A DNA stretch of 21,773 nucleotides, from positions 1 to 21,773 of the forward strand of contig JBGQGY010000058.1 of assembly GCA_041497675.1 (NCBI GenBank), written 5' to 3'. The stretch comes from a bacterium. GTDB taxonomy: Bacteria > Sysuimicrobiota > Sysuimicrobiia > Sysuimicrobiales > Humicultoraceae. The notes under the pieces were generated by a model. That model saw only the letters and a list, made by a program, of their open reading frames with translations, did no database searches and was not told the DNA's origin. The position numbers were made by a program, and so were the translations under genes. Positions 3,240-20,757 of the stretch are shown in pieces (positions within the stretch are counted from its first letter, which is position 1; every line of letters begins with the position of its first letter).

Positions 3240-3251
3240 CCTGCGCAGGGG

Positions 3252-3292
3252 CGGCCGCGCCTTGCGGCGAAGCGGCCGAGGTCCACGCAAGG
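3252..3292 (+). other. GC-rich intergenic stem-loop(s) between tcuA-like and M20 genes
   Basis: CGGCCGC (3252-3258) pairs with GCGGCCG (3272-3278); alternatively CCTTGCG (3260-3266) pairs with CGCAAGG (3286-3292). No U-tract, so not called a terminator. Confidence 0.35.
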
Positions 3293-3330
3293 TATTCGAG
3301 AGTCCAGCGGAGCCAGGGGACCTCATCACA

Positions 3331-6068: not shown

Positions 6069-6094
6069 CCGCGTGACATCCGGAGGATACCCTA
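6051..6094 (-). promoter_or_regulatory. Putative activator-dependent promoter: -10 TATGCT plus upstream site centred near -42
   Basis: Minus strand reads TAGGGTATCCTCCGGATG (6094-6077), 20 nt, TATGCT (6056-6051). No consensus -35; lies immediately downstream of a LuxR-type gene. Confidence 0.4.
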
Positions 6095-8443
6095 GGGCGT
6101 TCGAACTGACCCGTGCGCGGCCGTCCAGGCGGCGATCTGCGATCGAGAGTGAAACCCCAGTTTGTTCATGATGTTTTGGACGTGGGCGCCCACCGTCTTC
6201 TCCGTGATCCCCAACGTCGCACCGATCGTTCGGTTCGTGTGTCCCCCTGCAACCAGCGTTGCGATCTCTCGCTCTCGCCCGGAGAGTATCGACGACGGCT
6301 TTGGGCTAGTGGGTGCTCTTGATGGCTCGGACGTATCGGCACGGCGCGGCGCCGGTTCGAGCGCGTAGTCGATTGTCTCGGCGAGCGACATCGCCTGGCC
6401 TGCCGTCCAGGCACGTTCGAACGCGCCCTCACCAAGCCCCGTCCGAGCGGCAGTAACGGCCAGATCAAGGCTGGTGCGTCTCCAGCCGACCGGGACCACC
6501 GCAAATCGTTCTCTTAAGCTCTCGGCAGCCCCGAGCAGTGTTGCTGCCCGCACAAACTCACCCCGCGCAGACAGTGCGCGTGAGAGCTCCACCGTCAGCC
6601 ATATAATGATGAACGGGAAATTTCCTTGGCGCGCGTGCGCCAGGCCGTCCCTGAGGAGTACCTCTGCCTGCTCAGGTCTCCCCTCTGCAAGCGCCACCAT
6701 TCCCAATTGCGCGAGTATGAAACTCGTCATATAAGGGTTATTCAAACTCAAGGCCAGGGCCAGCCCCTCGTTGAGCAGCGCTGTCGCCCGCGGGAGATCG
6801 CCGCGGAGATAGACGGTTCCCCCCAGCGTACTCAGCGTCCTGGACAAGGGCGTCATGTATGCGAGCGTGCGAGACAACGGCAACGCCTCCTCGAAATACG
6901 CGATTGCCGTATTCAGCTCACCACCGTGTTCTGCGATCTCTCCCGAGACGAGCAGAGAGAGCACGATGGCATCACTCTTGCCCAGAATCCTGGCAAGCCT
7001 GAGGCTCTCCGCCGCGAGAGGTGCACCCGCCTGGAGATCGCCCTGCAAGAGGGCCCCCAACGCGGCTACGCGTGATGCATTCCAGCGTGGCTTGGACGGC
7101 TCCGTTCGAGCCGCATTAAGAGACATCTTCAACAGGTCACGAATCTCTCGGAAGTGCCCCTGACTGTTCCACACCCAGTGTGCCGACCCGGAGAGGCGGA
7201 GCGCGCTTTCGGCTTCGCCATTGGCGAGAAACCACTCGACACCCGCCCGCAGATTGTGGCGATCCGGTTCAAGCCGATCCCCCCGGTAGTGGGTCATCAG
7301 ACCAGGCTCGGCACGCTCTGCCAGTTCCAGAAAGAATCTGGCATGAGCCTTTTGGACGTCGGTTAGCTCCCCGCCGGCCTTCAATTGTTCCAAACCAAAC
7401 TCGCGAAGGCTCTCCAGCAGACCGAATCGTGGCTCGTCGCCTTTCTCTGCGAGCTTTCTGACCAGGTGCCTGTCGACAAGAGCGCTGAGAGCATCCAGGA
7501 CGTCGACCCCGATGTCGCCAGCAACATCGCACACTTCCTGAATGGCCTCCAGACTCGCGCTGCCCGCAAAGACAGCCAATCGACGAAACAGTGCCTGCTC
7601 GCGCGGCGTGAGCAGATAGTAGCTCCACGCGATCGCGTCTCGGAGCGTCTGGTGCCGGGCCGGCGCGTCTCGCGGGCCGGTCGTCAGCAGGATCAGTCGC
7701 TGCTCGAGTCGTTCTAGTATCTCCTGCGGTTCGAACATGCTGACTTTGGCGGCGGCAAGTTCGATGGCCAGCGGGAGGCCGTCGAGACGGACGCAAATCT
7801 CCGCGACAGCGCCGGCGTTGCGGTCTGTCAGGAGGAAATTCTGCGTGGTGGCCCTCGCGCGTTCCACGAATAGGCGCACCGCAGGCGATCGCAGGATCGC
7901 GTCGGCAGAACCGTAGTCGCGGCGATTAGGGAGGCCAAGCGGTGCAACCTCAAAACGATGTTCCCATCGCAGTCGCAGGGGCTCTCGGCTAGTGACAATG
8001 ATGTGAATACCGGCACCCGCACCCAAGAGTTCAGAGATGTCTGTTGCCGCATCAATCACGTGCTCAAAGTTGTCCAGAATGACAAGGGTGCGCTTCTTGT
8101 GCAGGTATCGCCGGAGCCGGGCGGTCGTCGGTTCGCGCGTCGTGTCGGACAGACCAAAGGATCGAGCGATGGCTTGCGTGACGAATGACGGATCGGTCAC
8201 GGTGGTGAGGTCGACGAACAACACGCCATCGTGAAACTCGGCCGCAACGCCAGCCGCAACTTCAACGGCAAGGCGCGTCTTGCCGATCCCGGGTGGACCG
8301 ACGAAGGTGAGCAACCGGACATGGTCGGCCAGCAACTGCTGCCTGGCCGCCGCGATCTCGCCGTCCCGACCGATCAAGGGTGTCGGACGCGGCGGCAGAT
8401 CGTGGTGAGGGTCCTTATCGGCTGGCGGCTCGCGACCAGGCAT
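6092..8443 (-). CDS. STAND-type ATPase / TPR / LuxR-HTH transcriptional regulator
   Basis: LPPRPTPLIGR, Walker A GPPGIGKT, Walker B VILDNFEH, VTSRE, RLDGLPLAIELAAA, RHQTLRDAIAWSY, helical TPR-like repeats, C-terminal LSGREREIATLVAGGHTNRTIG...HVQNIMNKLG. ATG at 8443 preferred over TTG at 8473. Confidence 0.93.
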   Translation of the reverse strand: MPGREPPADKDPHHDLPPRPTPLIGRDGEIAAARQQLLADHVRLLTFVGPPGIGKTRLAVEVAAGVAAEFHDGVLFVDLTTVTDPSFVTQAIARSFGLSDTTREPTTARLRRYLHKKRTLVILDNFEHVIDAATDISELLGAGAGIHIIVTSREPLRLRWEHRFEVAPLGLPNRRDYGSADAILRSPAVRLFVERARATTQNFLLTDRNAGAVAEICVRLDGLPLAIELAAAKVSMFEPQEILERLEQRLILLTTGPRDAPARHQTLRDAIAWSYYLLTPREQALFRRLAVFAGSASLEAIQEVCDVAGDIGVDVLDALSALVDRHLVRKLAEKGDEPRFGLLESLREFGLEQLKAGGELTDVQKAHARFFLELAERAEPGLMTHYRGDRLEPDRHNLRAGVEWFLANGEAESALRLSGSAHWVWNSQGHFREIRDLLKMSLNAARTEPSKPRWNASRVAALGALLQGDLQAGAPLAAESLRLARILGKSDAIVLSLLVSGEIAEHGGELNTAIAYFEEALPLSRTLAYMTPLSRTLSTLGGTVYLRGDLPRATALLNEGLALALSLNNPYMTSFILAQLGMVALAEGRPEQAEVLLRDGLAHARQGNFPFIIIWLTVELSRALSARGEFVRAATLLGAAESLRERFAVVPVGWRRTSLDLAVTAARTGLGEGAFERAWTAGQAMSLAETIDYALEPAPRRADTSEPSRAPTSPKPSSILSGREREIATLVAGGHTNRTIGATLGITEKTVGAHVQNIMNKLGFHSRSQIAAWTAAHGSVRTP

Positions 8444-8458
8444 GCGGGTATCGTAGCA
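8443..8458 (-). promoter_or_regulatory. Extended -10 promoter, probably leaderless transcript for the LuxR-type regulator
   Basis: Minus strand TGC-TACGAT-ACCCGC-ATG; no SD present. Confidence 0.55.
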
Positions 8459-8486
8459 TGCGACACCTGGCAAGGACTGGAGCCGG

Positions 8487-9236
8487 CTATCTGCGCAGTC
8501 CGGTCACGGCAATGAGCAGCACCCACAGGAGCAACAGCGCCAGAAACCCGGCAGACAACAGAAGTGTTTTGATAAGTGATGACCCAAGACCCTGCCGATA
8601 GGCGACCCTGACAGCGACGAACAGATACAGCGGGGCGATCCCCAAAAGGACGCCGTAGTACAGTCGCGGATTGGCGGTCACGACCGCAGGCGTCAGGATC
8701 AGGTAGATAAATGAGAAGAAATGAAATGCGAAGGTCAGATGCTCTGTGTAGTAGACTTTCTGCCGTACGTACAAGAGTTTCATCAGCAGGGCGAAGAGCG
8801 GGATAATACCCAACATCAGCAGGGGGAGATTGTTGGAGATCCTCTCGTTCATTGCCACGACCTGCGCCGCCGTCAGTGTGTGCAGCGGACTCGCCTGGTC
8901 GCCCACGTTTTGCCTAAATGTGTCCACCGTGATGGGGTCGAAGCGCCGGACGAGGAGCCAGAAATAGACGCTCACGAACGCGTAGAGCCGTGACGGTGGG
9001 AGGTAGGCGACCTGCCGGCCGGCAGAAAACTCCCGGGTCAGAAGGCCCGGCCGGAACAGGAGTGGGCGCAAACTTCGTACCGCCTTAGAGTCGAATGTGA
9101 CAAAGTTGCCGAGGATGTCGACCGCCACATCCCACAGCGGAACCACAGGGGGCTGGAACCTCTGCCCGCACTCCGAACAGAACTTCCCGGAGATCGGGTG
9201 GCCGCAGTTGTAGCACTGCGCCGCCTCTGCCGTCAT
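8487..9236 (-). CDS. DUF3667-like membrane protein with N-terminal Zn ribbon
   Basis: CYNCG...GKFCSECGQ, FDSKAVRSLRPLLFRPGLLTREF.AGRQVAYLPPSRLY, YYTEHL.FAFH, several TM helices. This is the real 3' part of the 666-aa ORF-track entry. Confidence 0.85.
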   Translation of the reverse strand: MTAEAAQCYNCGHPISGKFCSECGQRFQPPVVPLWDVAVDILGNFVTFDSKAVRSLRPLLFRPGLLTREFSAGRQVAYLPPSRLYAFVSVYFWLLVRRFDPITVDTFRQNVGDQASPLHTLTAAQVVAMNERISNNLPLLMLGIIPLFALLMKLLYVRQKVYYTEHLTFAFHFFSFIYLILTPAVVTANPRLYYGVLLGIAPLYLFVAVRVAYRQGLGSSLIKTLLLSAGFLALLLLWVLLIAVTGLRR

Positions 9237-9401
9237 CTGCACCGCCGCACCGCCCTCGACAGGACCGCCATTCAGCGGTCGGTGTTTGGCCTCCTCTATC
9301 CGGCAGCCCACCGGAGCCCTCCACGGCAGGACTGACCCCGACAACGGTGAATTGTGCCGCGAATTGAGGTCTTGATCGGTTTCCCCAGAGGAGGATTGTT
9401 G

Positions 9402-10976
9402 ATGGCCGCACGTAAGCGCGGAACGCGATTGACCCGCAGGGAGTTCGTCGTAAGCGCGGCTGCGGCCGTAGCCTCGACCACCGTATTGAGGTATGCGCTC
9501 CCCGCTGCGGGTGCCCCCGCGCCGGCCCCGGCTCAGGCGCCGGTCAAACCCAGCACGGGCGGCGTCCTGCGGACAACGCTGGGCGCGGAGCCCACTACCC
9601 TCGACCCCCACCGCGCGCAGTCGATCTTCGACTACGACGTCAAGGATGCCCTGTTTTCCTCGCTCGTGAGCGATGACTTCATCGAGGGCGCCCGGGGAAC
9701 ATTGGCCGAATCGTGGGAGTCGCCCGACGCCTCCACCTATATCTTCAAGCTCCGCCGCGGCGCGCGGTTCCACGATGGGTCGCCCGTCACAGGCGACAGC
9801 GTAAAGTTTAGTCTCGAGCGCGTGGCCGCGCAGGGACTCGGATTGATCCGGTCCATCCCCGATCAGGTCGCCTCGGTCGACGTGCTCGACCAGCAGACCG
9901 TCCGGTTCAAGCTCAAGGCGCCCAACGCCGCGTTCCTCATCGACCTTGCCGATATGGCGATCGTCCCCAAAGATTTTGACCCGACCCGTCCGGTCGGGGC
10001 CGGCCCGTTCCAGTTCGTCGAATGGGTGCGGCTCAGGCACGTGCGGGTGAAGAAGTTCCCCGGCTATTGGCGTGAGGGGCGTCCGTACCTCGACGAGGTC
10101 GTCTTCATGCCGACACCGGACGAGAATCAGAAGATCGTGCTGCTCGAAACGGGTAACGTTGAGTTTACGGACACCGTTCCCCTCCCCCGGGTCCGCGACG
10201 TCGAGCGAAGCGGGAAGATGAATGTCCTCAGCGTCCCGCCCGGCATATCGGCGTCGAGCTACTACTTGCTCACACGCGCCGACCGTCCGCCGCTGGACAA
10301 CGTCAAGGTCCGGCAGGCGATGAACTTCGCCATCGACCGCAAGGCGCTCATGGAGGTCCTCTTCCAGAAGGGCACGTTGAAGTCCAACATCATCCCGCCA
10401 AAGCACTGGGCGTTCAACCCCGCGTCGGTCTCGTTCAACGATCGCGACGTCACCCGGGCGCGAAAGCTGATGGCCGAAGCCGGGCAAAGCAACGGATTTG
10501 CGCTACAGCTGAAGCACTTTACAAGCCGCGCGGAGTTTGCGCCGCTGGCGCAGGTCATCGCCGCGAACCTGGCCGAGATCAACATCAAGGTCGAGGTGTT
10601 TCCGTTCCAGATCGGCATCTGGCTCAACCAGGTCTTGGTCGAGCGCGACTTTCAGATTGCGCTCTCGGGCATCATCCCGCGCCACGACCCCGACATCATG
10701 CTGGGCGAGCAGTACTCGATTCGGCGGATCAACGGCAAGGCGATGGGTTGGCGGCACGACCTCTTCGAGAAGCAGATCGATCAGGGCCGGGCCGTCGTGA
10801 ACCAGGAGGCCCGCAAGCGTGTGTATTCCCACGCGCAGCTGATCGCCCAGTGGGAATCGGCGGGGTTCGTCCTCAACGAGCGGCCGATCCTCATGGGCGC
10901 GGCGCCGAGCGTCCAGGGCTTCAAACCCGACGTGCGTCAGCTCATACGCTTCGAGGACGTGTGGCTGAAGCGATAG
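9402..10976 (+). CDS. ABC transporter substrate-binding protein, family 5 (DppA/OppA/NikA-like), Tat signal
   Basis: TRREFV twin-arginine signal; GGVLR, EPTTLDP, LAESWE, FKLRRGARFHDG, VGAGPF, YLDEV, VRQAMNFAIDR, ARKLMAEAG. SD GAGGAGG 7 nt before ATG 9402. Confidence 0.93.
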   Translation: MAARKRGTRLTRREFVVSAAAAVASTTVLRYALPAAGAPAPAPAQAPVKPSTGGVLRTTLGAEPTTLDPHRAQSIFDYDVKDALFSSLVSDDFIEGARGTLAESWESPDASTYIFKLRRGARFHDGSPVTGDSVKFSLERVAAQGLGLIRSIPDQVASVDVLDQQTVRFKLKAPNAAFLIDLADMAIVPKDFDPTRPVGAGPFQFVEWVRLRHVRVKKFPGYWREGRPYLDEVVFMPTPDENQKIVLLETGNVEFTDTVPLPRVRDVERSGKMNVLSVPPGISASSYYLLTRADRPPLDNVKVRQAMNFAIDRKALMEVLFQKGTLKSNIIPPKHWAFNPASVSFNDRDVTRARKLMAEAGQSNGFALQLKHFTSRAEFAPLAQVIAANLAEINIKVEVFPFQIGIWLNQVLVERDFQIALSGIIPRHDPDIMLGEQYSIRRINGKAMGWRHDLFEKQIDQGRAVVNQEARKRVYSHAQLIAQWESAGFVLNERPILMGAAPSVQGFKPDVRQLIRFEDVWLKR

Positions 10977-10980
10977 CTCG

Positions 10981-13254
10981 TTGACCAGGACGAACAACCA
11001 CGCCGCCGTCCTCGGCTCGCGCGTTCCCATGATGGATGGGGGCGAACGCGTGCGCGGCAAGGCGCGCTACACCGCTGATATCACGCTGCCCGGTATGCTG
11101 CACGCCCGGCCCGTCCTCAGCCCGCACGCGCACGCCACGATTCTTGCCCTCGACAAGACCGCGGCGCTCGCCGTCACGGGCGTCGTGGCGGTGTTGACGG
11201 CCGATGACCTCGCCGTCACATTCGCAGGTATCACACGCGCCCATATGCTGCTGGCGCAGAAGAGAGTGATCTTCTGCGGTCAACCGGTGGCCGTGGTCGT
11301 CGCAGAGACCGAGGCGGCCGCCGAGGACGGCGCGGCGGCGGTGACCATCGACTATGGGGCCCTGCCCGCGTCAATCAATGTGGAGGCGGCGATCGCGCCG
11401 GGTGCGCCCCTCGTATGGCCGGACGGCGTTCCGAAGACGCTTAATCCAGATGACGCCGCGCACGGGACCGTGACCGCCGAGGTTCACCGCGAAGAGGGCC
11501 GCGCCACGAACGTCACCGGCGAAGTCGACGTCACCCGCGGAGACGTCGCGCAGGGCTTCCACGATGCGGACCTGGTGCTGGAAAATACGTATCGCACACA
11601 GACCGTGCACCAGGGCTATCTGGAACCCAACGCCTCCATTGCCAAGCCCGATCCCCTCACCGGCGAGATGACCGTCTACAGCGCGACGCAGGCGCAGTTT
11701 CTCGTCCGTGACAAGGTCTCGCAGATCTTGAACCTGCCGGTGAGCAAGGTGCGTGTGGTGACGCCAACCGTCGGCGGGGCGTTTGGCGGCAAGTTTGGCA
11801 TCATCGACCCCTTGGTGGCCGCCGTGGCGTGGACGTTGAAGCGCCCGGTCCGGATGGCCCTGACGCGATCCGAGGATTTTCTGCTCACCACCCCGGCCCC
11901 ACAGATGGTGATTCGAATCAAGACCGGCATGACCAAGGGCGGCGTGCTGACGGCGATAGAAGCCGACATTCTACTCGATAGCGGCACCCACCCGACTGCC
12001 CTCGCCGGACTCGCGGCGCAGGTGCTCGCGACCTCCTACAAGGTTCCACACCTGCGTGTACGCGCCACTGGGGTGGTGACCCACAAGCCGGCCGTGGGAT
12101 CGTATCGCGGGCCCGGGGGGCCGCAGGCGACCTTTGCCCTCGAGTCGCAGATCGACGAGATGGCGCGCCGGTTGGGTCTCGACCCGCTGGCAGTTCGTCT
12201 GACGAACGCGGTGGACGAGGGTGACCTGATGACCGACGGCGGGCGGTACCCGGCGATCGGTCTGAAAGCCTGCCTGCAGCGCCTGGCGTCACACCCCACG
12301 TGGACACAGCGTCAGCGAACGCCAGGCGTGGGCTACGGTATCGGGGTCGGTGGCTGGCTCGGTACGATCATGCCGGCCTGCGCGATGTGCGCGATGGACG
12401 GGGACGGCACGCTGACCGTCACGGTCGGCTCGACAGACATGACGGGCGCGCACACGACGATGGCCATGATTGCAGCAGAAGTCTTCAACGTGCCTCCCGA
12501 AAAGGTGCGCATCGTCGCCACCGATACCGGCGCCGCCACATTTGCCGGGCCCAGCGCCGGCAGCATGGTGACGCGCACAGTGGGGGCGGCCGTCCTAGCC
12601 GCCACCCGGGCCGCGCGCAAACAACTCGTCGAGACCGCCGCCTCGATGCTCGAAGCCAACCCCGACGATCTCGTGCTCGAGGACGGCTACGTGATCGTGC
12701 GGGGCGCGCCCGGCAGGCGGCTATCCTTTCAAGAGATCAGCACGCGGACGCGGAGCTACAACTCACCGCATCCGCCTATCGCCGCAGAAGGCACCGTGGC
12801 GCTGCGAGACATCGCGCCGTGTTTTGTCGTCGAGCTGGCGCGCGTGCACGTCGATCCCGACACCGGCCGGGTTCAGGTTCTTGATTGGGTCGTGGTACAG
12901 GACGTGGGGCGCGCGCTCAACCCCCTGCTGATCGAAGGCCAGATTCACGGTGGGGTGACCCAGAGCCAGGGGTTTGCGCTGGGCGAGCAACTCGCGTACG
13001 ACGAACACGGACAGCTGCTTTCGGGGACGTTTGCAGACTACGCGTTGTCGAAGGCCGGGGACGTGCCTTCGATCGCCGTCGAACTCATAGAAGTTCCGGC
13101 CCAAGGCAGTCCCTTTGGGGCGCGGGGCGTCGGTGAGCCCTCGATCATCCCCGGCGTCGCCGCCATCGCCAACGCGGTACGTGACGCGTGCGGCGTGCGT
13201 GTGACCTCGTTGCCTATGACGCCGCAGACGATTTGGAAGAGCCTGACCGGCTAG
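10981..13254 (+). CDS. Xanthine dehydrogenase / CoxL-family molybdopterin-binding large subunit
   Basis: GKARYTADI, SPHAHA, HQGYLEP, GGAFGGK, SYRGPG, AGSM, QDVGRALNP, EGQIHGG, GARGVGEP (catalytic Glu). TTG start 4 nt after the SBP stop. Confidence 0.92.
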   Translation: MTRTNNHAAVLGSRVPMMDGGERVRGKARYTADITLPGMLHARPVLSPHAHATILALDKTAALAVTGVVAVLTADDLAVTFAGITRAHMLLAQKRVIFCGQPVAVVVAETEAAAEDGAAAVTIDYGALPASINVEAAIAPGAPLVWPDGVPKTLNPDDAAHGTVTAEVHREEGRATNVTGEVDVTRGDVAQGFHDADLVLENTYRTQTVHQGYLEPNASIAKPDPLTGEMTVYSATQAQFLVRDKVSQILNLPVSKVRVVTPTVGGAFGGKFGIIDPLVAAVAWTLKRPVRMALTRSEDFLLTTPAPQMVIRIKTGMTKGGVLTAIEADILLDSGTHPTALAGLAAQVLATSYKVPHLRVRATGVVTHKPAVGSYRGPGGPQATFALESQIDEMARRLGLDPLAVRLTNAVDEGDLMTDGGRYPAIGLKACLQRLASHPTWTQRQRTPGVGYGIGVGGWLGTIMPACAMCAMDGDGTLTVTVGSTDMTGAHTTMAMIAAEVFNVPPEKVRIVATDTGAATFAGPSAGSMVTRTVGAAVLAATRAARKQLVETAASMLEANPDDLVLEDGYVIVRGAPGRRLSFQEISTRTRSYNSPHPPIAAEGTVALRDIAPCFVVELARVHVDPDTGRVQVLDWVVVQDVGRALNPLLIEGQIHGGVTQSQGFALGEQLAYDEHGQLLSGTFADYALSKAGDVPSIAVELIEVPAQGSPFGARGVGEPSIIPGVAAIANAVRDACGVRVTSLPMTPQTIWKSLTG

Positions 13255-14443
13255 CGGCGCCCGACATCTCACGCCAGACGCGCCCAACCGCATCGGCGAG
13301 CACGCGCTCCTGACCCGGTTTCAGCGTGACCGGGTTGACGACCAGCACTCCACGATGAATCTGCGCCTCGCCCAGATGGATCGGCATCTCGAGCCTGTGG
13401 AGCCGGCGCACCAACTCCCTGGCCTGGGCCGACCCGCCGGGGCAGCGCAGGAGCACCAGCGGCACGCGGCTGTCAGAATCCGCGGCGTTGACGCGCTCGA
13501 CGGCCAGACCGCTGTCTTTCAATTCGGCCTCGACGTGTTTGGCCATGCCCTCCCACCCGGCGAGATCTCGAGCGTGGTCGCGCCGGACGTACCCGCGCAG
13601 CGCGACCAGCAGCCCGACGATTTCCTCTTTCCCGACTTTCAAGGCGCGGCCGATGCCCTGTTCCGGAGGACCGGCCACTGAGACGTCGGTAGCCAGACCG
13701 GCCGGGGGAGCCCACGTCGCGGCATCGACGTCCATATCCAGCATCTGCAGCGCCGCAGCGGTGATGAGGTCGCGCCGCCCGCATAGGATGCCGCTGGTTT
13801 GAGGACCCATGATGGCCTTCCCGCCACTGAAGGCGACCAGATCCGCGCCGCTGGCAATGAACCGCCGGAGATTGTCCGCCGGTGGAAGCTCTGCGGCGGC
13901 GTCCACGATCACCGGGACCCCCTTTTCGTGCGCGATCTGAATGGTCTCGTCAAGAGAAAGCGGGATGCCTTTGGAGCGCGCCACGATATAGAGGACGGCG
14001 GCCGTCCGATCGGTCAGCGCTGCGCGCAGCTCGTACGCCCGTGTCCCATAGGGCATGCCGATCTCGACCAGCCGCGCACCGGTGGCACGCACCGCATGGT
14101 CGTAGCCGTCGCGATGCCCCTTCTGGATGACCACCTCAGACCGCATGCCCGTCGTGTCAGGGAGTTGGTTCATCTTGTGGGGGTCAAGACCTGTGATGCA
14201 CGCGGCGGCGCCGAGCAGCAATCCGGCGGCCGCACCGGAGGTCACGATGCCCGCCTCCGCGCCGGTGACATCTGCGATGACACGGCTCGCCGCGGCCTGC
14301 AGCGCATCCATCGGCACGTAGTTCTGCGCCGCTTCGCGCATGGCCGAGAGCACCTCGTCGCTCATGAGGCTGCCACCGAGGCGCGTCAGACACCCCGCGG
14401 CGTTCACCACGCGTGGAACACCCAACTCTTCGAGAATCGTCAC
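13214..14443 (-). CDS. SelA-like / DgaE-like PLP-dependent enzyme (fold type I)
   Basis: VVNAAGCLTRLGGS, TGAEAGIVTSGAAAG, VIVDAAAE, GADLVAFSGGKAIMGPQTSG (PLP Lys), IGRALKVGKEEIVG. Lacks the N-terminal tRNA-binding extension of true SelA. GAGGAGG SD before GTG. Confidence 0.88.
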   Translation of the reverse strand: MTILEELGVPRVVNAAGCLTRLGGSLMSDEVLSAMREAAQNYVPMDALQAAASRVIADVTGAEAGIVTSGAAAGLLLGAAACITGLDPHKMNQLPDTTGMRSEVVIQKGHRDGYDHAVRATGARLVEIGMPYGTRAYELRAALTDRTAAVLYIVARSKGIPLSLDETIQIAHEKGVPVIVDAAAELPPADNLRRFIASGADLVAFSGGKAIMGPQTSGILCGRRDLITAAALQMLDMDVDAATWAPPAGLATDVSVAGPPEQGIGRALKVGKEEIVGLLVALRGYVRRDHARDLAGWEGMAKHVEAELKDSGLAVERVNAADSDSRVPLVLLRCPGGSAQARELVRRLHRLEMPIHLGEAQIHRGVLVVNPVTLKPGQERVLADAVGRVWREMSGAASRSGSSKSSAAS

Positions 14444-14458
14444 GAGCGCCTCCTCATG

Positions 14459-15271
14459 TCAGTGCTTGTCCTCAGGGATGACGTCCCGGCGCGCGCGGAA
14501 CTCGCGCACGAACTGGACGAAGTTCTCCACGGCGCGCTCGAAGATCAGCCTGCCCTTCTCAGCCGTGGCCACCGTGGCATCACCGGCCACACCCGTCTTC
14601 GAGATCCCACTCCACCAGATCTCTCCCAAGTGGACACCGGAGCCCGGTATGCCGATGTCCATCCAGATCCGTGGGGTCTGCTCGAACCCCATCTCTCGAT
14701 CCATCCGATCCCTGCGGACGCGCGCCTCGTCGAGATGCAGCACCACCGAGGTTTCGAGTTCGCACGCGTGCGCCATCCCCCCGGGCGTGGGCGCCTCGCG
14801 GAGATCGTCCATCGTGCCGATCAGGGTTCCCCAGAAGAGCGAGGCACACATCGAGCCGGTCCGGTAGTGCAGTTCATTGCCCGCGACGGCCATATAGGGT
14901 GGATTGACGCCGTGTCCGCTTACCACCACGATCCGCGTGAACCCATGGTGCGCGATACTGAGCAGCACATCGAGGAGATACTGGATGATATGGTTCCACT
15001 GGATCGTGATCGCACCGGGAAAGTGCATGTGGTGGGCGTCGAAGGCAAACGGGATGACCGGCAGAACCACGACCTCGTCAGGAATGCGCCGTCCAACCTG
15101 ATAGCAGAGGTGACTCACGATGTAGTTGTCGGTGTTCAGCGGGAGATGCCGGCCGTGCTGCTCCATGGCGCCGATAGGCACGATCACCACCCGACCCTGA
15201 CCCGCAACGTCTTTGAGCTCCTCCCACGTCAGGTTGCCCCAGAGAAACCGTTCCTGCCGCGTGAGATCCAC
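14459..15271 (-). CDS. Creatininase / creatinine amidohydrolase family protein
   Basis: PIGAMEQHGRHLPLNTD, HHMHFPGAIT, SGHGVN, HACELETS, SKTGVAGDATVATAEKG. GGAGG SD before GTG. Confidence 0.92.
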   Translation of the reverse strand: MDLTRQERFLWGNLTWEELKDVAGQGRVVIVPIGAMEQHGRHLPLNTDNYIVSHLCYQVGRRIPDEVVVLPVIPFAFDAHHMHFPGAITIQWNHIIQYLLDVLLSIAHHGFTRIVVVSGHGVNPPYMAVAGNELHYRTGSMCASLFWGTLIGTMDDLREAPTPGGMAHACELETSVVLHLDEARVRRDRMDREMGFEQTPRIWMDIGIPGSGVHLGEIWWSGISKTGVAGDATVATAEKGRLIFERAVENFVQFVREFRARRDVIPEDKH

Positions 15272-15286
15272 CAGCGCCTCCCGCTC

Positions 15287-15487
15287 CTACCCCTTCCGGG
15301 TGGATGAACCATACCGCGGCATCCAGTACTCGCGGTACCACTGCTCGCACTCCGCGCCGCAGAAATCCAACGGCCGGCCGTCGATCTCGACGCGCCAAAT
15401 CCGCCGGGGGATCAACCGCCCGCAGAGGACGCAGTTCGTGACTGTCGTTTCATACCACGCGCGCTGGATTTCGATCCATTCTCCCAT
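15287..15487 (-). CDS. 66-aa four-cysteine TRASH/YHS-like metal-binding protein
   Basis: C19-x2-C22-x20-C43-x3-C47 with a DGRPLDFCGAEC hairpin motif; aromatic-rich, protein-like composition; GGGGAG SD 7 nt before ATG; stop 15 nt before the creatininase start. Confidence 0.78.
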   Translation of the reverse strand: MGEWIEIQRAWYETTVTNCVLCGRLIPRRIWRVEIDGRPLDFCGAECEQWYREYWMPRYGSSTRKG

Positions 15488-17280
15488 GCCTGTCTCCCCT
15501 GCGCCCGCAGCCGGCGATCCCGCAGCCGCTGCGTGGCTTTCGGGTCGGGTCTCAGGTCGCCGTTCGCGCCGGTCAGGACGACGCCATAGACCGCACGGGC
15601 CTGGGCGGCGGAGACGAAACCCTCTCGTACATCCTCGAGAACATGTTCTGGGTCGCGTTCGAGCGGGCCGCCGTATCCTCCACCACCCGGCGTCTGGTAC
15701 CTGATCACGTCGCCGCGCTTGAGTACGACGTTGGTGAATTTTGTCGGTGACATGGTCCCAAAGACGTCAGAGAACGACCGGAACCGAGCCGTCCCTGCGG
15801 GCCGAACCAACAGCTTGGTCCGGCCCCCTTCCATACCGCCGAAGAGTCCCCAGGGAGCCAGCCGCACGCGGTCAAAGAGCGCGCTCACGGTGATCTCCGG
15901 GGCCGTCACCTCAAGGGTGCGTACGATGCCCAGCCCGCCCCGCTGCCTCCCCGGACCGCCCGAGTCCCGGACGAGCCCATAGTCCCACGTCAAGAACGGA
16001 TAGCGAGTTTCAAACACTTCGACGGGCGTATTTCGACAGTTGCTGTGACGGGTGATTTCGCCGCTGTTGCCGTCCTTCCTCGCCGTGGCGCCCGTCCCCA
16101 TGCCGTCAAAATGGTAATGGCTGTAGTATTGACCTGTCGCAGGATGGGTCCCGCCGAACAACAGATTGCTGCTCGACCCGCCGCTGGCCGCGGCCACCCG
16201 ATCCGGGACCGCCTGCGCGAGCGCCGCCAGGAGCAGATCGATGATCTTCGGCTGCGTGTCGGTGTTGCCCCCGACGCACGGCCCCGGGTGCTGCACGTTG
16301 ACCACCGAGCCCGGTGGGGCAATGATCCGGATGGGTCGATAGCAGCCCGAGTTGCGGGGAATCAGGCTGCGGGGGTCCACCACCGAGAAGACGGCATTGT
16401 ACACGGCGGCAGCAACGACCGTGAACGTGCAGTTCATCGGGCCGCGGACCTGGGGGCTGCTGCCGGTGAAATCGAACAGGATCTCATCGCCGCGCACGAC
16501 GACGGTCACGCGGATCTTGAACGGGTCGCGCGTCACCCCGTCGTCCTCGATCCACATCTCCGAGGCATATTCGCCGTCGGGCAACTCGTCGATGTGCGTC
16601 CGCATCAGCCGCTCCGAGTGATCGAGCAACGCCCGGCTGCCCTCGCGGATGAACACGGCGCCGTGCTTGTGCGCCAGAGCGACCAGCCGCCGCTCCCCCA
16701 CATTGAGAGAGCCGATCATGGCGTGAAAATCCCCCCACGTATTGCGCGGCGTACGGTGATTGGTCAAGATAATGCGCCAGATATCCTCGACGTACTCGCC
16801 GCGGCTGATGAGCTTAACAGGGGGAAGACGCAGGCCCTCTTGATAGACGTCGGTGGCATCCGACGCGAAGCTGCCCGGCGCCTTGCCGCCAATCTCGGCG
16901 CAGTGACCCATGTTCCCGAGAAAGCCAAAGAGCGCGTCCTCAAGAAACACGGGTTTGATCATCATGTGCTCGGGGAGGTGACACCCACCGCGATAGCAGT
17001 CGTTATGCACGAGCACATCCCCTGGCGCGAACGCCTTTGCCCCCAACTCCTCGACCGCCCACTTCACCGTATGGGGGATAGCGCCCATCATCGAGGGCGT
17101 ATAATTCTTCTCGGCGATCAGCTCACCGTCCGCGTCAAGGATGACCGTCGAGAAGTCTAACCCCTCGTTGAAAATCGTCGAATACGACGTCTTCATCATC
17201 ACGAGCGCCATCTCAGCGGCGACGTTGATCAACGCGTTGTGCAGGACGTGGAGGGAGACGAGATCAGGCGCTACCGGCAT
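15412..17280 (-). CDS. Hydantoinase B / 5-oxoprolinase family subunit (metal-binding, HyuB-like)
   Basis: SYSTIFNEGLDFS, NDCYRGGCHLPE, GHCAEIGG, YQEGLRLPP, DFTGSSPQ, NTPVEVFE, DSGGPGRQRGG, TPGGGGYG. GGAGG SD; 17-nt overlap with the upstream A subunit. Confidence 0.93.
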   Translation of the reverse strand: MPVAPDLVSLHVLHNALINVAAEMALVMMKTSYSTIFNEGLDFSTVILDADGELIAEKNYTPSMMGAIPHTVKWAVEELGAKAFAPGDVLVHNDCYRGGCHLPEHMMIKPVFLEDALFGFLGNMGHCAEIGGKAPGSFASDATDVYQEGLRLPPVKLISRGEYVEDIWRIILTNHRTPRNTWGDFHAMIGSLNVGERRLVALAHKHGAVFIREGSRALLDHSERLMRTHIDELPDGEYASEMWIEDDGVTRDPFKIRVTVVVRGDEILFDFTGSSPQVRGPMNCTFTVVAAAVYNAVFSVVDPRSLIPRNSGCYRPIRIIAPPGSVVNVQHPGPCVGGNTDTQPKIIDLLLAALAQAVPDRVAAASGGSSSNLLFGGTHPATGQYYSHYHFDGMGTGATARKDGNSGEITRHSNCRNTPVEVFETRYPFLTWDYGLVRDSGGPGRQRGGLGIVRTLEVTAPEITVSALFDRVRLAPWGLFGGMEGGRTKLLVRPAGTARFRSFSDVFGTMSPTKFTNVVLKRGDVIRYQTPGGGGYGGPLERDPEHVLEDVREGFVSAAQARAVYGVVLTGANGDLRPDPKATQRLRDRRLRAQGRQAWENGSKSSARGMKRQSRTASSAGG

Positions 17281-19318
17281 GGTTCAGGCCTCCCAGGGTA
17301 ATCATGATCAGACCGCCGGGTAGCACGCGCGCGTGATCACCCGGTGGCACAAGCGTGGTCGAGTCCTCTTCTTCAACGAGCGCGGGTCCCGGTAGCTCCT
17401 GGTCCGGTGCGAGCTCGTGCCGGCGAAACACGGGACAATCGATCCATCCCACCTTGCGGAAAAACAGACGGCGGACCGCTACGGGTTCGGCGGGCGCACA
17501 CGCGTGATCCCATTGTGGCTCAACAGGATCCGGGTAGCCCAGGGCCGTGATACGAAAGTTGATAAGCTCGATGGCTTCACCAGGAAGGTGAAATCCATAG
17601 TGCGTGTCGTGGAGTTGGGCGAATTGATTGCACAGGGCGTCAATTGACGCTGCGGTCATCTCGCCCTCCGGCAGCGGTACTTCGCGCTCGTAGTTCTGTC
17701 CCGCGTACCGCATGTCCACGGCGCGGTAGATGATAGGGCGTCCCTGAAATCCCTGGGCGCGAAGCTCCTCCAGGGCGGATGCGGTCATCTCGGCGATGAT
17801 CCTCGTCATGCGCTCCGGGTCCAGACTCCCGGAGCGCATGATACTGGTCCGCACCTTGTCCACCCGCCAATCCGCAATCAGCGCGCCAAACGCGGAGCAC
17901 AGCCCCGGGTGGGGCGGCACGAGCACCCGTGGCATCCCCAGCAGGCGTGCCACCGCGCAGCCGTGAAGCGGTCCCGCCCCGCCAAACGCCACGAGCGCAA
18001 AATCGCGGACATCGTAACCCATCTCGACGGCCAGCAGGCGGATCTCATTGGCCATGTTCTCGTTTGCGATCTCCACGGCGGCCGCGGCACACTCGACGGG
18101 CGCCATGCCGACGCGGGCGGCCAGCGCGGCCACCGCCTCTTCGGCCCGGCTGGGGTGCAACCGCATGCGACCACCGAGAAAGTAGTCGGGGTCCAGCCGT
18201 CCCAGCATCAGATTCGAATCTGTGAGCGTGACCTCCGTGCCACCGGCGTCGTAGGCAGCCGGACCCGGCGCAGCGCCTGCACTCTGCGGGCCCGCGTGGA
18301 GGAAACCGCCGCGGTCGACCCAGACGATCGACCCTCCTCCGGCGCCAATCGTCTTCACCTTGACACAGGGAAGCGTGATGGGGATGCCCCACTCCACCTC
18401 AAACTCCGCGGCGTCCTCGTGCTGGCCCTCGTGGATCACGCCGATGTCACAACTCGTCCCGCCCATGTCCAGCGTAAACGCGTTGCGCTCTCCCGCCGCC
18501 AGGGCGAAGAACTTGCCGCCGATGACCCCGCCGGCCAACCCGGACAGGAGCAACTGGACGGCGTGGGTGTCCGCCCGTTGCGCGGGGATCAACCCGCCGT
18601 TCGATTTCATCAGGTTGACCGCGGGGGCGCGCTGCGAGAAGACCTCCAGCACGTCCCGAACGTACGTCTGCAGCGACGGCCGCACGTAGGCGTCGGCGAT
18701 GGTCGTGCTCCCGCGTTCGAACTCGCGCCAGGTGGGGCATACAGCGCTCGACCGCGACACGGGCAGATCCGGACATGCTGCGGCTAAGTGCCGTTCGATC
18801 GCCGCTTCGTGTTCGGAATTGAGATAGGAGAAAATACAGCTGACGGCGACAGCCTGGCACTCGCCGCGTCGGACGCGTTTGCCGATCTCGTCGACCACCG
18901 CGGCGAGCTGTTTGAGGTCCAACGGTCGTATCGGCCGTCCCTCCGCGTCTACACGCTCACGAATGCCCAGACAGTCTCGCCGGTGGATAAGCGGTTCGGG
19001 TTTCACCCAGTTGAGATTGTAGAGCTCCTGCTTGTTGATGCGCTGGATGAACGGGACGTCCTCGAATCCTTCAGTCGTCACGAAACAGACACGCGCGCCT
19101 TTGCGCTCGATGACCGCATTGGTGGCCACGGTAGTGCCGAGGATTGCGACGTCGAACCGTTGCCCAATCTCCCCGAGATCGGTCAGGACGGCATGGAGCG
19201 CTACACTGGGTGTCCCCGGCGTGGAGGGGCGTTTCGCCTGATGGAATCTTCCATATTCGTCGACGGCAACAAGATCTGTAAACGTGCCCCCGACATCGAT
19301 GCCGACCCGTCGAAACAT
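17264..19318 (-). CDS. Hydantoinase A / 5-oxoprolinase family subunit (ATP-binding, HyuA-like)
   Basis: GIDVGGTFTD, GTTVATNA, EFERGSTT, DMGGTSCD, IGAGGGSI, GPQSAGAAPGPA, AFGGAGPLH, DMRYAGQ, GPALVEE.DSTT. Start ATG 19318 or GTG 19327. Confidence 0.94.
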   Translation of the reverse strand: MFRRVGIDVGGTFTDLVAVDEYGRFHQAKRPSTPGTPSVALHAVLTDLGEIGQRFDVAILGTTVATNAVIERKGARVCFVTTEGFEDVPFIQRINKQELYNLNWVKPEPLIHRRDCLGIRERVDAEGRPIRPLDLKQLAAVVDEIGKRVRRGECQAVAVSCIFSYLNSEHEAAIERHLAAACPDLPVSRSSAVCPTWREFERGSTTIADAYVRPSLQTYVRDVLEVFSQRAPAVNLMKSNGGLIPAQRADTHAVQLLLSGLAGGVIGGKFFALAAGERNAFTLDMGGTSCDIGVIHEGQHEDAAEFEVEWGIPITLPCVKVKTIGAGGGSIVWVDRGGFLHAGPQSAGAAPGPAAYDAGGTEVTLTDSNLMLGRLDPDYFLGGRMRLHPSRAEEAVAALAARVGMAPVECAAAAVEIANENMANEIRLLAVEMGYDVRDFALVAFGGAGPLHGCAVARLLGMPRVLVPPHPGLCSAFGALIADWRVDKVRTSIMRSGSLDPERMTRIIAEMTASALEELRAQGFQGRPIIYRAVDMRYAGQNYEREVPLPEGEMTAASIDALCNQFAQLHDTHYGFHLPGEAIELINFRITALGYPDPVEPQWDHACAPAEPVAVRRLFFRKVGWIDCPVFRRHELAPDQELPGPALVEEEDSTTLVPPGDHARVLPGGLIMITLGGLNHAGSA

Positions 19319-19342
19319 GCGCAACACCGCCGAGTGATGTCC

Positions 19343-20482
19343 TCACCGCACGAGCTGAACCACGACCTCGATGCCCTCGCTTGGGTAGCCACCGGTGACG
19401 ACGCGCTGAGCGGTCGTGGTCGTGAAGAGTAACCTGTCACCCACCGTAATCGTCGCTCGCACGACCACGACGGTGCTTGCGGTGACGTTCCGGGGATCGT
19501 ATCTGATCTCAAACGCAAACGGCGCCTGGCGGTCCCTCGTGGCAATCGTCTGCTGACCAAGCACGATGGCGGGTGCGTCCGTCTTCGACGCGTCCAATAG
19601 CTGCACGCGCACGATCGCGTCGGTGGGTAGCGCGCTGCGCTGGCGGTGCGTCACGGTCCCGGTCACACGCGCCTCCGTGAGGACGGCGCTGAACCTCATG
19701 GCGCCCGAGTCATCCTTCAACCCGAGCACGAGAATGTCGCCGGGCCAGGACACCCGATCGACGGCGTTCAACTGCGCCAGGTAACGACGCTCCAGCGACC
19801 CGGGTCGGCACGCCGCCTTGGTGAGAGCCTGAACGGACACGGTGAGTGACTGACCGCGTCGGTCGTACGTCCCCGCCCCCCGGTTGCAGTCGGCTCGCAC
19901 GGCGACCCGGCCATCCCGGGAGAACTGCACGGTGTATCGTCCGGGATCGTCAGGCGTGACCTGGCTGCCGTCGCCCATCCACGTGCCCTGCCAGTACCAG
20001 GTGATCTCGACGAGGCGCTGCGATTCTTCCGGGCGAGTGGCGGGCCGCGGCGCGTACATCCTGGCGATCACCTCCCGACCGGGCAGCGCGTTCCGCAGCC
20101 CCTGAACCAGCCGGGCGGTCCATTGGTTGGCGACCTCGTGAACGGGCACACCCGTGCCCGCGGCGTCCGCCGGCGTCACCGTCATGACGGTGATGTCGGC
20201 CGCGACGATCGCCGCGCCGTCTCCAACCGCGCGAACCTCCACGGCGATCTGGCGTCGCGTGAGTTCGGGCAGGCTCAGCACGTCGACAATGCGCTGGTTG
20301 ATCTGTTCGACGCGCTGCTCAAGCGTCAGCCCGGCCGCCCCGCGGGTGAGCCGGCACACCCAGACACCGCCGACCGAGATGTCGCCAATGTCCGCCAGGG
20401 CGGGCCTTGGTAGGACAACCTGCAACCCCACCAGCACGGCGACCATCGCCATCATCGTGATTCGGTGGCACACGGTGCGCAT
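19343..20482 (-). CDS. Secreted protein: unknown N-terminal domain + META (HslJ-like) domain + YbaY/YscW-like domain
   Basis: Sec signal ending PALA|D; META segment YTVQFSRDGRVAVRADCNRGAGTY...TKAAC; YbaY segment VTGTVTHRQRSALPTDAIVRVQLLDASKTDAPA...PFAFEIRYD. ATG overlaps the upstream stop (TGATG). Confidence 0.82.
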   Translation of the reverse strand: MRTVCHRITMMAMVAVLVGLQVVLPRPALADIGDISVGGVWVCRLTRGAAGLTLEQRVEQINQRIVDVLSLPELTRRQIAVEVRAVGDGAAIVAADITVMTVTPADAAGTGVPVHEVANQWTARLVQGLRNALPGREVIARMYAPRPATRPEESQRLVEITWYWQGTWMGDGSQVTPDDPGRYTVQFSRDGRVAVRADCNRGAGTYDRRGQSLTVSVQALTKAACRPGSLERRYLAQLNAVDRVSWPGDILVLGLKDDSGAMRFSAVLTEARVTGTVTHRQRSALPTDAIVRVQLLDASKTDAPAIVLGQQTIATRDRQAPFAFEIRYDPRNVTASTVVVVRATITVGDRLLFTTTTAQRVVTGGYPSEGIEVVVQLVR

Positions 20483-20757
20483 CACCCCATCGTCTTCGGG
20501 AGTCGGCTGATGCCTGTCCTGCTTGGGACCGTCAAAATACACGCCACCACGCAATACATGGCAGCCCATAGCCACCAGAGTCTCGTCAAGTCCGGGCCTG
20601 AGAATCCTCTAAAGAGGTACCAGCCTCCGATCGTATTTTGCGCAGTATGGAACAACATAGCGAGCAACGCGCTCTGATGTGTGTTGTAGTTCCCCCACGA
20701 GAGGCCGTAGGCCAGCACAAAGAACGCCACCAGCGGGTGACCTTTGACGCCCGACAT
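20482..20757 (-). pseudogene. Internally deleted CPBP/Abi (type II CAAX) intramembrane protease remnant, still an open 91-aa frame
   Basis: Family-typical N-terminus HPLVAFFVLAYGLSW joined directly to the C-terminal motif YNTHQSALLAMLFHTAQNT; the catalytic EExxxR and FxxxH motifs are absent. Confidence 0.72.

Follow-up and report, generated by a model that had tools for sequence, protein, structure and literature searches.

The question raised by this locus is whether five adjacent genes constitute one pathway of cyclic-amide catabolism, and on which substrate such a pathway would act. The locus lies in a 21,773-nucleotide (nt) stretch of DNA (the window) which is the entire contig C58 (JBGQGY010000058.1) of a 3.97 Mb bacterial genome (GCA_041497675.1, Humicultoraceae). 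Five co-oriented minus-strand open reading frames (ORFs), all intact, encode a HyuA-type ATP-binding subunit (hyuA, 17264..19318), a HyuB-type metal subunit with a polar pocket (hyuB, 15412..17280), a 66-amino acid (aa) protein with four cysteines (Cys4; the mini-protein, 15287..15487), a creatininase-family metal amide hydrolase (14459..15271) and a pyridoxal phosphate (PLP) enzyme of the SelA/DgaE/Cap15 family (13214..14443). A preliminary description had read them as one candidate undescribed five-family module. What is widely conserved is the trio of HyuA, HyuB and the 66-aa Cys4 protein, not the five-gene cassette. The route that we favour for the locus, with a probability of about 0.45, consists of ring opening, N-deacylation and a PLP-dependent elimination that turns a 2-amino-2-deoxy-aldonate without a phosphate group into a 2-keto-3-deoxy acid.

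The gene arrangement given in the preliminary description (five co-oriented genes, overlaps or gaps of at most 15 nt, four Shine-Dalgarno sites) agrees with the ORF coordinates and the upstream purine runs. hyuA and hyuB overlap by 17 nt, the C-terminal coding tail of hyuB overlaps the mini-gene by 76 nt, and two gaps of 15 nt follow. GGAGG/GGAG-type runs resembling ribosome sites precede hyuB, the mini-gene, the creatininase-family gene and the SelA-like gene. No close ribosome site was found upstream of the hyuA ATG at 19318 (684 aa); an alternative in-frame GTG start at 19327 would give 687 aa. A promoter and terminator scan gave nothing informative on an operon, and the five genes are presumably co-transcribed. 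The family labels were also confirmed by Pfam: Hydantoinase_A/N/C for HyuA (PF01968/PF05378/PF19278), Hydantoinase_B for the 622-aa HyuB (PF02538, E 3e-175), Creatininase for the 270-aa protein (PF02633) and SelA for the 409-aa protein. All four scored under the NCBIfam cut-offs, while the mini-protein had no family match in the Pfam scan of the window proteins or in NCBIfam.

The genome is rich in paralogues of these families (hyuA/hyuB-like matches on ~10 contigs, 16 more creatininase-family and 2-3 more SelA-like genes). Family co-occurrence by itself is consequently weak evidence, and conservation was therefore tested with orthologues. A scan with the window HyuB gave 27 genome loci (Armatimonadota, Actinomycetota including several Thermoleophilia groups, Acidobacteriota and Spirochaetota), and a scan with a HyuB alignment contributed the best 80 of 432 metagenome matches, 107 loci in total. 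Genes were called with a codon-model gene caller, and some calls are chimeric at frameshifts. Eleven loci end too soon; in 90 of the 96 evaluable loci the mini-protein follows hyuB or is fused to it (7 in frame). The reverse search with the mini-protein profile covered 94 genomes of the window's phylum, with six strong matches, and 251 of a relative's class, with five. Every one of these 11 adjoins hyuB or hyuA; four weak matches (E ~1e-4) are not beside either gene. Only 4 close homologues came out of a word-index search with the mini-protein, and tblastn against plasmids, where divergent versions do exist, found none; neither search is sensitive for this protein. The complete five-gene order was found only in kin of the same family (whole in locus L007, cut by contig ends in L008 and L009), and L017 (Thermoleophilia) has all five genes in another arrangement. 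Outside the close kin, the creatininase and SelA-like genes are replaced by non-homologous enzymes. The five-family module thus stands as a gene order of close relatives and falls as a conserved unit.

The mini-gene differs from that of L007 by 17 synonymous and 3 non-synonymous codons among 66, and is a real coding sequence under purifying selection. Its profile matched 181 representatives at 50% clustering (E<=0.001), and the cysteines are conserved in most of 120 members (C19 in 120/120, C22 in 114, C43 in 113, C47 in 104). The structural model (pLDDT 86) has a hairpin (29-42) and a helix (45-60). With a CxxC-x20-CxxxC motif, this corresponds to the treble clef of the TRASH/YHS/zf-FCS/eL24 group (CxxC-x(19-22)-CxxxC, hairpin plus helix). 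Pfam assigned TRASH_HVO_1752_C to 22 and zf-FCS to 11 of the 120 members (E<=0.01), and the Atlas placed the window protein at 0.95 to a TRASH-named cluster. Fold searches with the model returned weak eL24/TRASH-like matches (best Z 4.5; none at E<=0.001). The Acx or Apc gamma chain was not among the matches listed, all of which were weak, and kinship with it is still possible. The four cysteines suggest that the protein binds zinc.

Gene fusions and gene order also connect the mini-protein to HyuB. Four full-length database proteins are C-terminal mini/HyuB fusions (HyuB 52-53% identical to that of the window), and Allorhizobium ampelinum S4 has an N-terminal fusion to HyuB. Five of six cultured members of the HyuB clade carry a CxxC...CxxxC gene or domain. 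A divergent version follows hyuB in Shinella and Sulfitobacter, lies between hyuA and hyuB in Rhizobium, and precedes hyuA in Halalkalicoccus; Methylobacterium has none. No annotated small gene was found at the five nearest plasmid hyuAB pairs outside the clade (one regular-expression match, at L196, is not an annotated gene), and the Cys motif was absent from 4/4 paralogous hyuAB pairs of the window genome. Two further arrangements were seen: a mini-gene directly upstream of hyuA in L186 (G137:C14), and one database protein (P0049) with the mini-protein N-terminal to a HyuB fragment.

Co-folding predicted that the mini-protein binds HyuB. The complex score was 0.82, compared to 0.00 for the best of 3 controls, the runs shared at least 79% of contacts, and the partner pLDDT was at least 81. 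The co-folding mark is reached by 116/157 solved and 2/215 mismatched pairs, and these counts apply only approximately in the present case. The residues predicted to form the interface (W74, E78, Y96 and R97) do not vary among 103/103 HyuBs of the clade and are variable in 51 outside it, a comparison qualified by shared descent and by the bias of the outside set (~25 near-identical proteins). The role of the mini-protein would be structural, because the predicted interface is on the surface and distant by residue number from the metal ligands. The mini-protein is therefore very probably a third subunit or a detached domain of HyuB and not a separate pathway step, and the preliminary description, which had counted it as a module member in its own right, needs revision here. 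In the accessible text of PMC5214803, hydantoinases are encoded by two genes without a gamma subunit, acetone carboxylases have the order A-B-gamma, and a small Cys4 subunit is described only for acetone and acetophenone carboxylases. The clade departs from that two-gene pattern by the third gene or domain in 90/96 loci, the fusions and the docking prediction. Our literature searches, whose coverage was incomplete and left supplements outside, found no three-subunit hydantoinase-type enzyme and no such pathway, in agreement with the earlier view of the cluster as a candidate undescribed module.

Does a third subunit make the enzyme a carboxylase? A new ATP-dependent ketone carboxylase would copy the acxABC order, with the small zinc protein on the B-type chain, and the altered metal site (below) would suit it. 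The small subunits are different: the Apc gamma chain is a non-globular 15 kDa protein with CxxC-x49-CxxC, as far as the available text of PMC5214803 describes it, compared to 66 aa and a TRASH/eL24-like CxxC-x20-CxxxC in the window. Both large subunits are far nearer to the hydrolases. HyuA has the ATP motifs DVGGTFTD (8), DMGGT (284) and GAAPGP (348) of the ASKHA superfamily, which correspond to the DxGGTxxD, DxGGT and GxxPGP given for the hydantoinase (Hyd) branch in the accessible part of PMC8453981. Its best solved relatives are N-methylhydantoinase (E 1e-118) and 6YRA chain A (2e-100), followed by carboxylases (3e-81 and 8e-69). HyuB gave 3e-100 to N-methylhydantoinase, 9e-32 to Apc and 1.5e-15 to Acx. 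Apc models scored 115-276 bits against cut-offs of 1250-1500, and the carboxylases ranked under the Hyd enzymes in the PDB search. The polar pocket also speaks against a ketone carboxylase, as do the neighbours (amide hydrolases, aminotransferases and dehydratases, with no CoA ligase among those scanned). In the wider clade, hyuAB of Shinella and Sulfitobacter is followed by aminotransferase and succinate-semialdehyde dehydrogenase genes, and a class III aminotransferase is present in 10/23 wider-clade loci. Hydrolysis is favoured because both subunits are nearer to N-methylhydantoinase and caprolactamase than to carboxylases and because of these aminotransferase and semialdehyde dehydrogenase neighbours. 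We consider with good confidence that the enzyme is a hydrolase, and a carboxylase highly improbable.

The window system shares the two-subunit core, the ATP motifs and the Asp-His-x-His site with the Hyd branch (CapAB, PDB 6YRA; N-methylhydantoinase, PDB 7HK5; HyuAB of Pseudomonas NS671). It differs in the third Cys4 subunit or domain, the third metal ligand and the pocket. HyuB D42-H101-E104-H126 aligns with CapB D41-H99-D102-H124, and the metal Asp equivalent to CapB Asp102 is described as fully conserved in the part of PMC8453981 available. This ligand is Glu in 103/103 clade HyuBs and in 0/51 outside. The change is conservative, and the metal site is likely still present. All 109 HyuBs with Glu104-His105 formed one clade (the 'E104-H105' clade; support 0.88) in FastTree trees that were midpoint- or paralogue-rooted, made without a clade-rejection test and limited to HyuBs of at least 480 aa. 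Within it, a tight subclade that includes the window has invariant D341, Q343, D392, E408, R411 and H412 (38/38) and a nearly invariant K58 (34/38), while the CapB pocket is hydrophobic (PMC8453981, accessible text). This near-invariant polar pocket suggests one shared polar substrate. The vicinal disulfide of CapB (C410-C411) aligns to T410-R411 of the window HyuB, and the NCBIfam CapA and CapB models scored 469 and 328 against cut-offs of 1000. True CapAB or Apc identity of the large subunits was ruled out by these cut-offs and the sequence ranking. At L083:686-4540, HyuA and HyuB of the clade are fused into one 1285-aa ORF; no small protein was detected nearby.

The neighbours of the tight subclade point to the kind of substrate. 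Neighbours were counted in 32 tight-subclade loci of at least 10 kb and in 23 wider-clade loci. SelA-like genes were present in 11 of the 32 loci, enolase-superfamily genes in 15 (both in 1), PfkB in 8, aldolases of the 2-keto-3-deoxy-6-phosphogluconate (KDPG) type in 7, DHDPS-type aldolases in 12 and RidA in 5; the wider-clade counts were 1, 6, 2, 0, 0 and 0 respectively. Two loci scored as having neither the SelA-like nor the enolase gene have a SelA-like gene just outside. The best NCBIfam models for these neighbours were galactonate dehydratase, 2-keto-3-deoxygluconate (KDG) kinase and Eda, all below cut-off. Some amide hydrolase was found in 18/32 tight-subclade loci. A creatininase accompanies the SelA-like gene in 2 of the 11 SelA loci and a D-aminoacylase-like enzyme in 6; the two never occur together, and in two more of the 11 a D-aminoacylase-like gene is just past the locus edge. 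Solved relatives of this enzyme include D-aminoacylases and OngB. A SelA-like match at E<=1e-40 was absent in 5/6 enolase-operon genomes. The neighbours of the tight subclade therefore occupy slots in which enzymes can be exchanged. One is that of an amide hydrolase, another that of a beta-eliminating lyase (usually either a SelA-like protein or a dehydratase of the enolase superfamily), and a third that of KDG kinase or aldolases. The short-chain dehydrogenase/reductase (SDR) and enolase neighbours had no characterised close match. A recurring 301-aa neighbour (L012:4791-5693, also in L023 and as a fragment in L014) gave no hit in Pfam or NCBIfam at the thresholds applied.

DgaE and Cap15 are the two best solved matches of the SelA-like protein, about equal, and share its PLP fold and lysine motif (FSGGK209, invariant in 10/10 aligned sequences). 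The DgaE models gave 212-218 bits against cut-offs of 385 and 600, and the selenocysteine synthase model (TIGR00474) 55 against 268 bits. According to the accessible text of PMC9529869, His162/His163 of DgaE are strictly conserved and Arg301/332/346 form a phosphate cluster. The window protein lacks both histidines and, in our reading of the alignment, two of the three arginines (G at R332, V at R346). True DgaE or SelA was ruled out by the cut-offs and these lost DgaE residues. The protein also has a ~27-residue insertion (LDMD...W...P..GIGR) that is absent from DgaE and common to haloarchaeal and Thermoleophilia homologues. Its closest cultured relatives (44-48%) are in haloarchaeal chitin/N-acetylglucosamine (GlcNAc) loci: a PIG-L deacetylase, RidA and glucose dehydrogenase are near the SelA-like gene in 3/4, two of them with NagZ or a GH18 chitinase, and the fourth adjoins a polysaccharide lyase. 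Haloarchaeal DgaE-like proteins are predicted to deaminate glucosaminate in the portion of PMC12343721 available. Taken together, these features indicate that the window enzyme is probably an ammonia-lyase acting on a 2-amino-2-deoxy-aldonate that carries no phosphate. The 'DgaE-like' proteins of haloarchaeal chitin loci (Haloferax mediterranei pHM300, L187:8968-11372; L188 and L189) themselves lack the DgaE His-His loop, which suggests that they may act on unphosphorylated glucosaminate with no kinase needed.

The creatininase-like protein has the fold and the EQHG-x-H / D / HA-x-E-x-ETS motifs of the PF02633 enzymes (creatininase, MftE, IolN, ArfB), but scored below all four family cut-offs (TIGR04448, 105 against 235; MftE, 127 against 172). 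It has SGHGVN where creatininase has NGHYEN, a segment which we take to act in metal and substrate binding. The creatinine pathway was rejected on these two grounds, as the preliminary description had anticipated, and the protein is probably an N-deacylase or decarbamoylase, not a creatininase. A looser association of the creatininase-like and SelA-like genes with hyuAB, acting on a different substrate and including the textbook creatinine/N-methylhydantoin reading, would agree with the many paralogues per family, with a five-gene order confined to close kin and with N-methylhydantoinase as the best solved match of both large subunits. Against it, orthologues of the same creatininase subgroup (56-57%) recur beside the same HyuB clade in L017, L043 and L046, while a match above 45% identity exists in only 3/23 genomes. 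The enrichment of SelA-like genes in the tight loci and the missing creatininase signature also count against it, and we regard it as very unlikely. A second creatininase-family subgroup (37-43%) occurs apart from this hyuAB clade: in the window genome (G000:C9:33480-41968, L171) and in G102 (L169) it clusters with an AstE/DoeB-type deacylase and enolase-superfamily genes.

In the favoured route, HyuA, HyuB and the 66-aa protein would form a three-part ATP-dependent cyclic-amide hydrolase. HyuA would use ATP to activate the ring carbonyl, HyuB would hydrolyse the activated ring at the Asp-His-Glu-His metal site in the polar pocket, and the Cys4 protein would be a structural zinc module on the HyuB exterior. 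The ring may be that of a cyclic amide or cyclic urea derived from a 2-amino-2-deoxy sugar acid, such as a 5-(polyhydroxyalkyl)hydantoin, whose opening would give an N-carbamoyl or N-acyl amino-aldonate. The creatininase-family enzyme would strip the N-substituent, and the SelA-like enzyme would eliminate the C3 oxygen and ammonia to give a 2-keto-3-deoxy-aldonate for Entner-Doudoroff-type cleavage encoded elsewhere. The same keto acid could also be formed by an enolase-type dehydratase, and this would account for the SelA/enolase exchange. The substrate and all of the chemistry are deduced from sequences and neighbourhoods; the amino-sugar-acid nature of the route, taken alone, has about even odds. 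The earlier logic of ring opening, amide hydrolysis and beta-elimination is supported. Its substrate was an 'unknown N-heterocycle or modified amino acid or sugar'; the choice is now smaller, and a 2-amino-2-deoxy sugar acid converted to a 2-keto-3-deoxy acid is the probable one. An analogous route is the ong pathway of Pseudoalteromonas prydzensis (OngB, OngC, KdgK, RidA), which follows the same logic of N-deacylation, PLP-dependent deamination of a 2-amino-2-deoxy-aldonate, KDG kinase and RidA in the accessible text of PMC9537276. It lacks an ATP-dependent ring opener, and in the window the hydrolase has the creatininase fold and the lyase the SelA fold; the two routes are alike in logic, and the window genes are not members of the ong pathway.

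The same three-subunit hydrolase could act on other rings. Muramic acid from peptidoglycan forms a delta-lactam closed onto its O-linked acid. An SDR could oxidise C1 of this lactam, HyuAB open it and the SelA-like or enolase enzyme eliminate lactate from C3 to give KDG, while the creatininase-like or D-aminoacylase-like enzyme takes a parallel N-acetyl form. This would explain the lost DgaE His and Arg residues and the polar, basic pocket, and it fits the recurring peptide-type ABC transporters, gamma-glutamyltransferase (GGT, 8/32), SDRs (17/32) and 2-hydroxyacid dehydrogenases. However, no glycoside hydrolase or murein-peptide-specific family was found among the neighbours scanned, the binding proteins had no specific match, and we consider this substrate unlikely. 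Another conceivable ring is that of a small lactam of a hydroxylated amino acid, for instance a hydroxy- or dihydroxy-5-oxoproline. Its opening would give a beta-hydroxy amino acid, and deamination of this a 4-hydroxy-2-oxo acid that a KHG-type aldolase would cleave. Eda-, DHDPS- and RraA-type aldolases, which can cleave 4-hydroxy-2-oxoglutarate, are seen as neighbours, GGT is frequent, and wider-clade members resemble plain lactamases. The amide-hydrolase slot and the KDG-kinase-like PfkB would be left unexplained, and the chances of this lactam appear low.

Several observations weigh against the amino-sugar-acid route or its three-part enzyme. Six of the 96 evaluable loci have no mini-protein profile match: L015 has an insertion element downstream of hyuB, L049 a cut HyuB, L064 and L071 only a regular-expression candidate, and L068 and L083 nothing. 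Methylobacterium L174 is without the mini-protein, so this subunit is not obligatory. Because the loci are related by descent and some are near-duplicates (L019/L021, L020/L022, L060/L061, L098/L099 and L010/L117), their counts are not independent. Five SelA-type genomes carry an enolase homologue (52-56%) elsewhere, and the window genome one at 46%; the SelA/enolase exclusivity is therefore local only. No KDG kinase or KDPG aldolase is present in the window, and tblastn of a subclade KDPG aldolase against the window genome gave nothing at E<=1e-10. The window SelA-like protein is only ~40-48% identical to those of Thermoleophilia, with no supported grouping with them, and a Mesorhizobium homologue of the same subfamily has peptidase and dipeptide-epimerase genes as neighbours. 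The glucosaminate-lyase role in haloarchaea is, for its part, only a published prediction (PMC12343721, available portion). Finally, the best solved match of the SelA-like protein is the O2-dependent decarboxylase Cap15, tied with DgaE (E 4.6e-50 vs 1.6e-47).

Cap15 suggests a different order of steps, in which the SelA-like enzyme would decarboxylate the ring-opened alpha-amino acid with O2 and the creatininase-like enzyme would then hydrolyse the resulting one-carbon-shorter carboxamide to the acid, the reverse of the order proposed above. Cap15 (8T7J) is the top sequence and fold match, its reaction is as given in the accessible text of PMC6411801, and an amide hydrolase accompanies the SelA-like gene in 10/11 loci. 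The equivalents of Cap15 K262/K265 (PMC6411801, same text) are kept (K269, K272), but they are also present in DgaE and hence do not discriminate. The difference in E between Cap15 and DgaE does not exceed noise, the model is modest (pLDDT 66), and the RidA neighbours and the exchange with a dehydratase point to an enamine-forming elimination. A Cap15-like reaction is accordingly improbable here.

A broader reading, which we advance tentatively and hold to be doubtful as a whole, is that a large uncharacterised branch of ATP-dependent amidases in bacteria and haloarchaea independently gained a treble-clef third subunit and an Asp-His-Glu-His site, and that the window subclade opens amino-sugar acids that have cyclised chemically (muramic lactam or sugar hydantoins, with chitin and cell-wall necromass as the source) for Entner-Doudoroff metabolism. 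If true, this would be an undescribed salvage of recalcitrant amino-sugar nitrogen in soils and sediments. The annotation rule by which two subunits indicate a hydrolase and a small zinc subunit a carboxylase would fail, and hyuAB of this clade expressed without the 50-70 aa 'hypothetical' gene may yield an inactive enzyme. The cultured carriers Sulfitobacter dubius, Rhizobium leguminosarum and Halalkalicoccus jeotgali make the subunit claim directly testable. By the neighbourhood pattern, the substrate would be one of a few amino-sugar-acid rings, and a lyase acting on non-phosphorylated acids of the glucosaminate type is predicted. Such a lyase could dispense with the 'unknown kinase' in the haloarchaeal GlcNAc pathway proposed in PMC12343721 (available portion).

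The remaining window genes surround the cassette. Convergent to it (9354..13254, plus strand; Pfam) are a lone family-5 solute-binding protein (9354-10976) and, following it, a xanthine-dehydrogenase-family Mo subunit (10981-13254) with no adjacent FAD or Fe-S subunit genes. The Mo subunit gene converges on the SelA-like gene with a 41-nt overlap, and the pair has the same position in L007 and L009. The Mo subunit may oxidise a heterocycle to the lactam substrate, and both proteins are possibly linked to the cassette, an association seen in close kin only. The best solved relative of the binding protein was AgaA (163 bits; next 159); an agropinic-acid (opine) analogy was dropped as this match was weak and unspecific and a literature search gave nothing relevant. 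A gene for a META + YscW-domain protein (19343-20575, minus strand) ends 15-24 nt before hyuA. L007 keeps only a ~50-codon 3'-end remnant of it upstream of hyuA; the gene is probably a variable neighbour and may supply read-through into hyuA.

A 5'-truncated aldehyde dehydrogenase (ALDH) ORF (1-1755, plus strand; 580 aa visible) contains the C-terminal half of one ALDH domain and then a second ALDH-like stretch; the protein probably has two ALDH domains. Residues 1-205 also match contig C50 at 98.5%, which suggests a duplicate or an assembly overlap. TcuA tricarballylate dehydrogenase (over the NCBIfam cut-off) and an ArgE/DapE-family deacylase are encoded at 1842-4599 (plus strand); the deacylase is only 26-28% identical to the M20 enzymes near related hyuAB loci. 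A DUF3667 protein gene (8490-9311, minus strand) adjoins that of an NB-ARC/TPR/LuxR regulator (6092-8473, minus strand).

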